Positions 45,374 through 47,584 of a stretch of 64,000 bases of DNA are shown here, piece after piece. The notes beneath the pieces were generated by a model. The model was given only the letters and a program-made list of their open reading frames with translations. It was not told the DNA's origin and ran no database searches. Position numbers and translations under genes: made by a program. The DNA is from Octopus sinensis (lineage: Eukaryota): NCBI RefSeq assembly GCF_006345805.1, contig NC_043006.1, positions 10,354,001-10,418,000 on the forward strand, in the 5' to 3' direction. Numbering within the stretch: the first letter of the stretch is position 1; each line of letters opens with the position of its first letter.

Positions 45374-47239
45374 ACCGTTATTACATATGGACGTACACAA
45401 TATACAAATGCACAAGCGCAAATATCTGTGTGGATATATATGTATCTGTATGAGTGTTTGTATGTGTATGATTGTATGTGTGTGTATCAAGACTGATGGA
45501 TTGATTCATTTTATGCAAACACTGCTTGTTTAAACCATTACTATTTGTATGTTGAAATATACTATCCTCTTTGAATGTCGTAACTTAAATGACATCAGAA
45601 ATAATATATATATGCGTTTAGTGAAGAGGCTTTCGAACTAAGATATCCCCCAAACGCTTACATATCTTTCAGTATATCATTTTCAGTTCCTTCCTATTTC
45701 TCTCGCTTTCTCTTGATTTATTTATTTAGCTTTCTTTGTCGTTTTGTAAAAGAGGGTGGAGGTAGTGGTTTTAATATTTATCGTTTTCTTATTTAGCGAA
45801 ATAAGTGAAAATCCGTTTATGGGTTAATTCGTAGCTACTGTTTAACAAACGTAAATATTTCAATCTGTAGCAATATATCGTTGACCAAATATCTACATAA
45901 TCAAAAAGCTTTCGAGAAACAGGGACACTTAACAGAAAACCCTGACAGTTATTCTACACAGAAACATTTTGGAATTGGTTTTTCAAAAAGAAGGGAAGCA
46001 GAAATATTATTTCTTAAGTGCATTTGAATTGGCAAGAAACCCATTTTTGCTGATGTAATGTATCTGGAAGATGGTTTGTATGCGCTTAACTTCCGGTGAA
46101 AGTTGACGAAACAGACCTATGCCTAAAGGTAACCCAGTTATGACAAACAGTTTTTTTACTTAGAAGTGTCTAAATTATTCTGTACTATTTCCATTCTGAA
46201 ATTGCAGGGTCTGATCTTAGAGTAAATTAGCAGTTATTTCTAGCGTTTCGATCTGCCACGTATTTGCAAGAAAGATATACCCTTCCTGATTATTCATTTT
46301 GACCGCTAACTATCTTTGATTGAAGAGTTCTACGAAGAATTCGTTAAGGAACATTCTTGGGGTCTTTATGTTATTAGTTGAAAATATTTTATATCAGATT
46401 AACGAAGGCAATTCTTGTCTCTCACCCGAGAGAGCTTCCTTTGATTAATTCAGTCCTGAATAGAATTTGAAGGTGGAACTTTCAACAAAGGGCAAATACT
46501 AATTAACGATACAGTCCTGCGGTTGCAGAAAAAGGAAGCATGCGCACTCCTGGTATTTGCTTACTGTTAGTTTTGAATATATTTACAAAACAAGAATAGT
46601 TGCCTGTGGAAATAATATAATAATCGACACGTCTAAATATCAGTTACTACCTTCATACTTTAATTTTTCAGAATAAAAAATCACGTATTTAAATGGTAGG
46701 AGAGCTCAGTATGTAGACCAGTTATTCTTATGTTACGCAAAGTTCGGACAAACCAATGGTCGATATTAGATTATATAGATTCTATCCAACTGACATCAAT
46801 ATATATCTTCCATGATAATTTTTTTTAAAGTGATTGTAGTTACTAACGGAGAACGCTGAAACATAAAAAGACATGCATAACTGATATCGGTTATATACAA
46901 TGTCAAATACAAATTTCACTGTGATTAGAAACAAGATATTATATCCTTATCTAAATATCTATCTATCTATCTATCTACCTATATATATATATATATATAT
47001 ATATATATATATATATATATATATATATATATATATATATATATATATATATATATATAATAATAATAATAAATATTAGGGAATGAATCCCAAATTACAG
47101 GGAAAAATCAGATTTAGGGTTAAATCCAATTTTATAGTAAAATATTATATAATATAATTCGAGACAAAACCACTATTTTAAAACCAAACAAGGAAAGACT
47201 TAATCAAAACATAAAATTTTAATAAAATTAAATAAACCG

Positions 47240-47282
47240 CCACTACAAATGTTTCATGTCTGCTCCGACAATCTTCAGGTGG
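47240..47282 (-). ncRNA. Type I hammerhead ribozyme motif (mirror copy)
   Basis: Exact reverse complement of 47351-47393. Confidence 0.8.
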
Positions 47283-47350
47283 ATTTTCGATCTTCTAATC
47301 AGTATCAAATTTTGAAGTCAGGTGGAATATATGATTAGAAGATCGAAAAT

Positions 47351-47393
47351 CCACCTGAAGATTGTCGGAGCAGACATGAAACATTTGTAGTGG
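47351..47393 (+). ncRNA. Type I hammerhead ribozyme motif (intact core)
   Basis: CCAC-CTGAAGA-t-TGTC ggagca GACA-t-GAA-ACA tt TGT-A-GTGG. All three stems close; predicted GUA cleavage after 47389. Confidence 0.8.
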
Positions 47394-47584
47394 CGGTTTA
47401 TTTAATTTTATTAAAATTTTATGTTTTGATTAAGTCTTTCCTTGTTTGGTTTTAAAATAGTGGTTTTGTCTCGAATTATATTATATATATATATATATAT
47501 ATATATATATATATATATATATATATATACATATATATATATATATATATATAATATATATATATATATACATATACATATATA

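Follow-up and report, generated by a model that had tools for sequence, protein, structure and literature searches.

How did a perfect inverted repeat with a hammerhead motif on each strand come to lie between two (TA)n tracts in the genome of Octopus sinensis? The repeat is located in a stretch of 64,000 nucleotides of contig NC_043006.1 (hereafter, the window). Based on the anatomy of the parent element, the exact removal of an intron, a common 5' start, two 3' ends, the pairing of one short with one tailed arm and the (TA)n targets, we read the locus as a head-to-head pair of copies of the 5' UTR of a Penelope-like element (PLE), both lacking the intron, that lies in (TA)n. The pair was probably generated in one insertion, in which two cDNAs were primed at two fixed internal positions of a capped, spliced mRNA, each from a different strand of the target. 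A previous sequence-only reading of the locus holds in part; the origin from a spliced PLE 5' UTR, which is the main point here, was not seen in it.

Architecture of the locus and its dispersed family

The features are listed below, with q denoting the position in the unit counted in the reverse complement of window positions 47061-47318.

46955-47060, no strand: left (TA)n microsatellite, target of the tail arm (repeat scan and census of tail ends)
47061-47318, minus: long ("tail") arm, a whole spliced 5' UTR copy, q1-q258, from the putative initiator A to the putative distal reverse transcriptase (RT) start site
47061-47141, minus: one-sided 81-nt tail, q178-258
47240-47282, minus: type I hammerhead motif with short stem III; putative cleavage after A47244
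47292-47318, minus: PLE exon 1, 27 nt, with the exact splice junction at 47292/47291 (comparison with long copies)
47319-47331, plus: 13-nt filler unique to the locus, beginning with a C that may have been templated by the cap
47332-47491, plus: short arm, q18-q177 of the spliced unit, ending at the putative proximal RT start site; splice junction at 47341/47342
47351-47393, plus: second copy of the hammerhead motif; N17 is A47389
47477-47584, no strand: right (TA)n microsatellite, target of the short arm (repeat scan and census of short-arm ends)
47854-47871, minus: likely template of the filler; 13/13 exact, 17/18 with the preceding microhomology

The arms of the palindrome (47146-47301 and 47332-47487) are 156 nt each and 100% complementary, with 30 nt between them. 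Thus, the perfect repeat and the 30-bp spacer described previously stand, while the arm length of 155 bp is one short. The hammerhead cores on both strands, A47389 as the nucleotide preceding the proposed cleavage site and the (TA)n tracts to the left and right had all been placed correctly. The whole locus, however, spans 47061-47491 and includes a one-sided 85-nt extension to the left (47061-47145) that had been missed, and more than half of the "spacer", 17 of 30 bases (47302-47318), is exon 1 of the element itself. The filler is identical to the reverse complement of 47854-47866 and, in the window and 466 kb of sequence from other loci, its 13 bases occur elsewhere only there; the chance of such a match to the flank is ~5e-5 within 600 bp on either side. 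The filler was, therefore, likely templated from this flank, while a jump within the element would account for only 8 of the 13 bases.

The regions 47738-47932, which includes the filler template, and 48154-48552 are flanking repeats common to several unrelated loci. Elsewhere, the window contains 2.6 tandem copies of a 184-bp unit, which we take to resemble a SINE (20068-20556), pieces of an ORF of the non-LTR RT type (22998-23997) and arrays of AT-rich palindromic units of 12-64 bp, of the GAAAATTTTC type (5920-6744).

Inverted repeats can be fold-back artefacts of libraries or assemblies, and the contigs of four out of four sequencing runs leave the filler region (47321-47345) uncovered while they do cover the family on 47061-47345; such a hole in contigs proves nothing. 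An artefact would mirror the flanks as well. By contrast, the mirror ends at sites defined by the family, one arm is tailed and the flanks differ. Moreover, the same architecture is present at more than 80 pairs, and the symmetric form of the centre is found in short-read contigs of run X1, with a loose end at 47312. We give an artefact next to no credence and regard the palindrome as real.

The palindrome belongs to a large family. A search of the genome (2.72 Gb) gave 1341 candidates, of which the 40 that were scored are all whole palindromes with 92-100% identity. The exact 43-mer of the hammerhead occurs 107 times (control, 0), and a relaxed hammerhead pattern retrieves 1850 copies. In 17 of 17 loci read, exactly one arm has 80 nt more than the other. 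The centre varies from copy to copy, and that of the window occurs once in the genome at one mismatch. The arms are identical in 11 of 30 near-full palindromes, and the mean difference between arms is 0.7 substitutions and 0.4 indels. In other words, the perfect arms in the window are ordinary for the family, and homogenisation, previously offered as an alternative to a very young insertion, is not needed. The young age itself is borne out by exon 2, where 1-5 substitutions and 1-5 indels over ~228 nt separate this locus from ten long copies. Some loci are more complex: four alternating arms form a chain at L056:2124-3096, and whole palindromes are duplicated locally at L021, L123, L149 and L200.

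Parent element, exact intron removal and common 5' start

When the sequence upstream of the arms was first sought, only a palindrome centre was recovered. The parent was found among 20 of the 107 places with the 43-mer, picked for long spacers or unpaired matches. At most of these, q26-258 is common with a much longer element, in which q1-27 sits ~1.3 kb upstream and exon 2 continues for 52 nt beyond the tail to the ATG of an ORF. At one locus, covered by L080 and L081, the long element is a partial tandem: an intron leads into exon 2 and the ORF, after which exon 1, the intron and exon 2 follow anew. Its three copies of exon 2 lie 5.4 and 6.2 kb apart around two ORFs, and the last one leads into the tail and (TA)n. 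The parent, thus, has the partial tandem that forms pLTRs, with hammerhead and tail, of an EN+ PLE.

The parent ORF contains the motifs DKT, PMG and YRDD, an asparagine-rich insert, a CxC-C-C linker and a domain of the GIY-YIG/CCHH type. The RT motifs are conserved in 31 homologues, and the C-terminal GIY-YIG endonuclease with CCHH reads VVY..YIG..R..H..C.LC..E..LN..CRH. The endonuclease was assigned by this motif pattern, and no family match was obtained for it. The predicted structure of the ORF (pLDDT 79) has TERT as its four best Foldseek matches (E 8e-10 to 1e-8, TM-scores ~0.3), while searches of the ORF gave 0 Pfam families and 0 PDB sequence-profile matches. At least 414 homologues exist, nearly all unnamed, and among the 31 homologues searched with Pfam, RVT_1 was detected in one. 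A linker of the CTCRDKSNCILNNNC type, rich in cysteine and resembling a zinc finger, separates RT and endonuclease in 8 of the 8 aligned rows examined. Judged from these motifs, the parent is an EN+ PLE, of the Neptune type by its linker and (TA)n targeting, with the proviso that Nematis PLEs also carry a linker (PMC8557442); named Neptune or Nematis references are absent among the 120 homologues listed. At L084:4485-6950, residues ~476-583 form a disordered asparagine-rich insert between RT and endonuclease, as described for Adineta Pen2a (PMC3846280).

In eight long copies, exon 1 is followed by a GTATGT donor, an intron of 1270-1314 nt and a TTAG acceptor leading into exon 2. Both window arms join exon 1 to exon 2 exactly. 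Genome-wide, 284 exact spliced junctions compare with 43 unspliced acceptors, a ratio that is approximate because the two search patterns differ. Three other, older subfamilies also have intron-less copies, each with its own exon 1; in one of them the donor is GTAAGT at another position and shares no microhomology with the acceptor. An additional case is the following locus.

L053:860-1520 (G000:C1:8144360-8145020): short-plus-tail palindrome with a first exon taken from the LTR of an LTR retroelement

In both of its arms, an exon of the LTR retroelement ends at that element's GTAGGT donor and continues directly at the PLE acceptor, and by sequence this is a foreign exon captured by splicing. 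Because GT-AG removal is exact, follows the donors of the individual subfamilies and extends to a foreign exon, the intron was likely taken out by the spliceosome and not by DNA deletion. Retention of the intron after retrotransposition, a trait described for PLEs, is not seen in the window arms and the 284 junctions; it is seen at the 43 acceptors and in 15 of the 15 copies that have the seven bases upstream of the start (read-through). Intron loss is also a mark of processed retrocopies. At L086:205-235, a copy of exon 1 is followed by about five GGTTAG telomere-type repeats at the position of the donor, and not by the start of the intron.

The arms also share their 5' start. Exon 1 begins within TCACTTC in 4 of 4 subfamilies, and none of the 76 spliced loci that hold the first 100 of the 284 matches listed has the 12-nt upstream key (0/76). 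Of 26 arms, 14 have G as the base preceding +1, while 9 have the C found there in the genome and 3 have A or T; among the 17 arms without the genomic C, 14 have G, of which three (L003, L138 and L139) are unambiguous and the others could be microhomology with the partner arm or the flank. In L1, an extra 5' G is derived from the cap. From these DNA copies we infer that the template was a spliced mRNA with a cap and a defined start site. Two further candidate elements were dropped: a DPE-like word, whose spacing departs by 2 nt from the canonical one, and a word in the tail that resembles a telomere repeat but is not conserved in relatives.

These observations bear on two alternatives. In one, the intron was lost once, in DNA, from a non-autonomous master mini-element that has since spread as a SINE- or retrozyme-like unit or as a TA-inserting MITE with terminal inverted repeats. 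Hundreds of palindromes of 330-350 bp in (TA)n would fit such a unit, and retrozymes do derive from PLE pLTRs (10.64898/2026.07.22.740005). However, the centres vary by copy with that of the window being unique, the tail is one-sided, the mini copies in four subfamilies match their own long copies and donors, a foreign exon has been spliced onto the same acceptor at L053, and same-strand repeats of the unit exist only as the few local duplications mentioned above. We consider this alternative largely refuted and quite improbable. Specifically, a MITE was rejected: its constant interior and symmetric termini are lacking in view of the variable centres and the one-sided tail, and the arms map to exons of an RT element. 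A non-LTR retrozyme was rejected as well, same-strand tandems being replaced in the window and most census loci by inverted pairs or solos.

In the second alternative, taken from the model in PMC3846280, an antisense transcript serves as a self-priming template. While this would explain the head-to-head geometry and the long copies that keep the intron, exact loss of a GT-AG intron that lies on the sense strand is impossible from an antisense template, and so is a stop at the sense initiator with one G added. Thus, the spliced copies contradict it for these insertions, and as an account of the locus we rate it as very improbable, although it could still apply to long copies.

Two 3' ends, short-plus-tail pairing and (TA)n targets

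Arms end at one of two places, q172-191 or q252-258, and in the census loci at least (TA)4 follows 50 of 52 short-arm ends and 59 of 60 tail ends. We used two censuses, both comprising only first-listed matches (contigs C1-C8 and C1-C4, respectively). The first contains 57 head-to-head pairs, of which 55 combine a short with a tail arm and two are irregular, and 21 solo loci (L123 and L149 count twice). The second, of 40 further loci picked by sequence common to both arms with pairs taken first, contains 27 pairs, all of them short plus tail (L200 counts twice). In combination, 82 of 84 head-to-head pairs have one short end and one ending 80 nt later, while about half would be expected if the arms picked their sites independently; among the 57 and 27 pairs, none is short plus short or tail plus tail. 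Eight long inverted insertions, mostly unspliced, also fit this pattern, with L060 having the tail. At ~80 nt, the tail is longer than the usual 30-40 nt. Both start sites are TA-like, and priming looks microhomology-assisted.

Are the two arms copies from one cDNA or two? A single tail-primed cDNA on the spliced template could fold back at the TCAAAATTTGA quasi-palindrome, copy itself to q177 and join the target, with the arms becoming unequal through later deletion of palindrome centres. Fold-back predicts that the short arm is nested in the tail arm and that symmetric centres carry the tail-arm base. Many centres do lie exactly at the quasi-palindrome (26 are symmetric), self-priming has been proposed for PLEs (PMC3846280), and the arms have their haplotype in common: at eight haplotype sites, 55 cells are common to both arms and two are discordant (L149 counted three times), and private variants common to both arms occur seven times among 98 pairs. 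However, in 13 census pairs the short arm extends further 5' than the tail arm, and several pairs lack any overlap (L196, L203, L217 and L219). At the symmetric centres, the base is that of the short arm in 13, that of the tail arm in 8 and ambiguous in 5, so that 13 of 21 informative centres do not have the predicted base; these counts lean on short homopolymers, and indel errors are numerous in the assembly. Also, non-nested pairs, slippage fillers of 50-110 nt (L186, L187, L194 and L195) and solo short arms would each need extra steps. Later deletion of palindrome centres could, on the other hand, account for the unequal arms. We, therefore, regard fold-back of a single cDNA as unlikely, although less so than any other alternative considered here. 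In our preferred reading, each arm stems from its own cDNA and the 3' ends of the two cDNAs were joined, while the haplotype common to both arms points to a single RNA, or to sibling RNAs, as the source; L097 and L160, in which the arms differ at sites whose alleles both occur in other copies, hint at two RNA templates in rare insertions.

Truncated arms provide a view of the template. Among 80 such arms in 67 loci, 47 start at q83-100, which is the foot of helix I, often after slippage repeats, and nine at q28-75. This suggests that helix I folds in the RNA template, AT-rich microhomology being the alternative. Only 4 of the 80 start at q74-76, around the predicted ribozyme cleavage site at q76, and cleaved RNA was, therefore, not adopted as the main template. 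At L186, L187, L194, L195, L201 and L215, q83 is where arms stop, and 10-110 nt of TTTAT/TTTTA repeats precede them; these repeats resemble, by analogy, reiterative synthesis by a stalled telomerase-related RT.

In the two-cDNA model that we favour, the GIY-YIG endonuclease would nick both strands of a (TA)n target. One target 3' end would then prime at the UA-rich sequence around q177 and the other at (UUA)n at q253-258. Both cDNAs would be extended in the direction of the cap, the template being either a single RNA or two from the same source, and their 3' ends would finally be joined through microhomology or filler. With priming near the 5' end of the mRNA, a spliced mRNA would yield only copies of up to ~260 nt without the ORF. 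Copies with the ORF would come from read-through RNA, whose downstream intron stays unspliced, and the hammerheads would be passengers of the pLTRs. A more general version, about which we are evenly divided, is that each PLE insertion uses both internal starts, one per target strand, on sense RNA, and that the intron is spliced only if exon 1 is next to the cap, so that capped, spliced mRNA gives rise to intron-less mini-palindromes only.

The hammerhead motif and related elements

The core, with CUGANGA, GAAA and UH elements and three helices, is present in the window and invariant across 16 haplotypes, in which variation is confined to N7, loop II, 10.1/11.1, loop III and N17. The hammerhead pairing is preserved in 94.6% of cells, compared with 28-58% when the pairing is slid. 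Compensatory covariation was not detected among the 16 haplotypes (score 0.060 vs 0.067 in shuffled data). The bare core pattern by itself matches the window no more often than chance allows (7 matches vs 3.15 expected; 6 of 100 shuffles reach 7), and no Rfam hammerhead was detected in the window at the gathering score or at E<=10, or on a single arm; below threshold, the window gives generic hairpin families only.

The motif lacks the G10.1-C11.1 pair. Position 10.1/11.1 is unpaired in 9 of 16 haplotypes, and the window haplotype has U.U, as noticed earlier. Stem III is perfectly palindromic in most of the first 100 of the 1850 copies listed. In the window haplotype this palindrome is broken, and its self-duplex is predicted at -2.9 kcal/mol compared with -6.4 kcal/mol for the palindromic version of its relatives. 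The minimum-energy fold of the monomer is not the hammerhead either (-6.4 vs -4.5 kcal/mol). When the whole repeat is folded, the probability of every hammerhead pair is 0 in both directions of transcription, in agreement with the earlier proposal that the duplex, a candidate ADAR or Dicer substrate, masks the ribozyme; in either direction, the antisense arm is transcribed before its complement. In PMC4209133, hammerheads of the dimer type with a short stem III did not cleave as monomers and cleaved weakly as dimers. In our models the motif is, thus, a weak dimer-type hammerhead that is predicted to be fully masked at the locus, and self-cleavage of the locus RNA, which had been thought possible, is unlikely given the short dimer-type stem III, the weaker self-duplex and the masking, as the antisense copy cannot furnish a second sense motif. 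The window locus itself is probably inert.

Several parts of this picture have precedents (for a review, see PMC6765202). Inverted, 5'-truncated PLE copies, tails and a (TA)n bias have been described, with the significance of intron retention called unknown (PMC8557442); pairs of hammerheads on opposite strands, 100-700 bp apart, have been noted (PMC4209133). Hammerheads on both strands of a perfect repeat are, thus, a known PLE by-product. Selection was offered as the reason for keeping the 5' UTR intron of Penelope (PMC2377424). The Neptune-type EN+ PLEs share with the family studied here a pLTR with a 5' UTR intron and a hammerhead, partial tandems, the inverted 5'-truncated copy, the one-sided tail and the (TA)n bias (PMC8557442), whereas here most junction-bearing copies are intron-less and ORF-less, the tail is longer and the short-plus-tail pairing is strict. 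Adineta Penelopes have a similar Inr-like TCACT, 5' palindrome and N-rich ORF insert (PMC3846280). Minimal PLE hammerheads are likewise of type I, with a short palindromic stem III, of the dimer type and found in opposite-strand pairs (PMC4209133); by contrast, the motif here has U.U (relatives have U-A, A-U or A.G) and a broken stem III palindrome. Animal non-LTR retrozymes, which arise from pLTRs, are also non-coding and bear a hammerhead (10.64898/2026.07.22.740005); however, they form same-strand tandem arrays, while here inverted pairs and solos would be newly made from spliced mRNA.

A functional parallel is the Anolis Poseidon PLE PAc in vitro, where both strands are cleaved and extended, two internal RT starts bound the tail, and uncleaved RNA is used, so that hammerhead cleavage is not needed (PMC11167929). 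In PAc, priming is non-homologous without strand preference, whereas here both starts are TA-like, with one of each used per insertion.

Twin priming by L1 involves internal priming by the nick in the second strand, with the first cDNA primed at poly(A) and arms that do not overlap; here, the overlap between arms reaches 175 nt, and neither start is at an RNA end. We found no report of intron-less PLE mini copies or of a one-short-one-long rule in a search of mainly open-access literature. As far as this search extends, the spliced origin and the strict short-plus-tail pairing are new.

Why PLEs keep introns and how their tails and their tandem and inverted repeats form are stated as open questions in PMC11167929, PMC8557442 and PMC3846280. 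The octopus family offers answers that can be counted: a sense template that was spliced and probably capped, and inverted insertions that each pair a proximal with a distal start. With the spliced origin and the pairing in hand, the in vitro PLE assay already published can be used to test how priming proceeds and why introns are kept. Also, annotation may mistake short hammerhead palindromes in (TA)n for MITEs, miRNA hairpins or artefacts. If the general version of the model is true, intron retention, tails and inverted pLTRs would follow from one rule across PLE clades, and any capped RNA that is spliced onto a pLTR acceptor could be mobilised.
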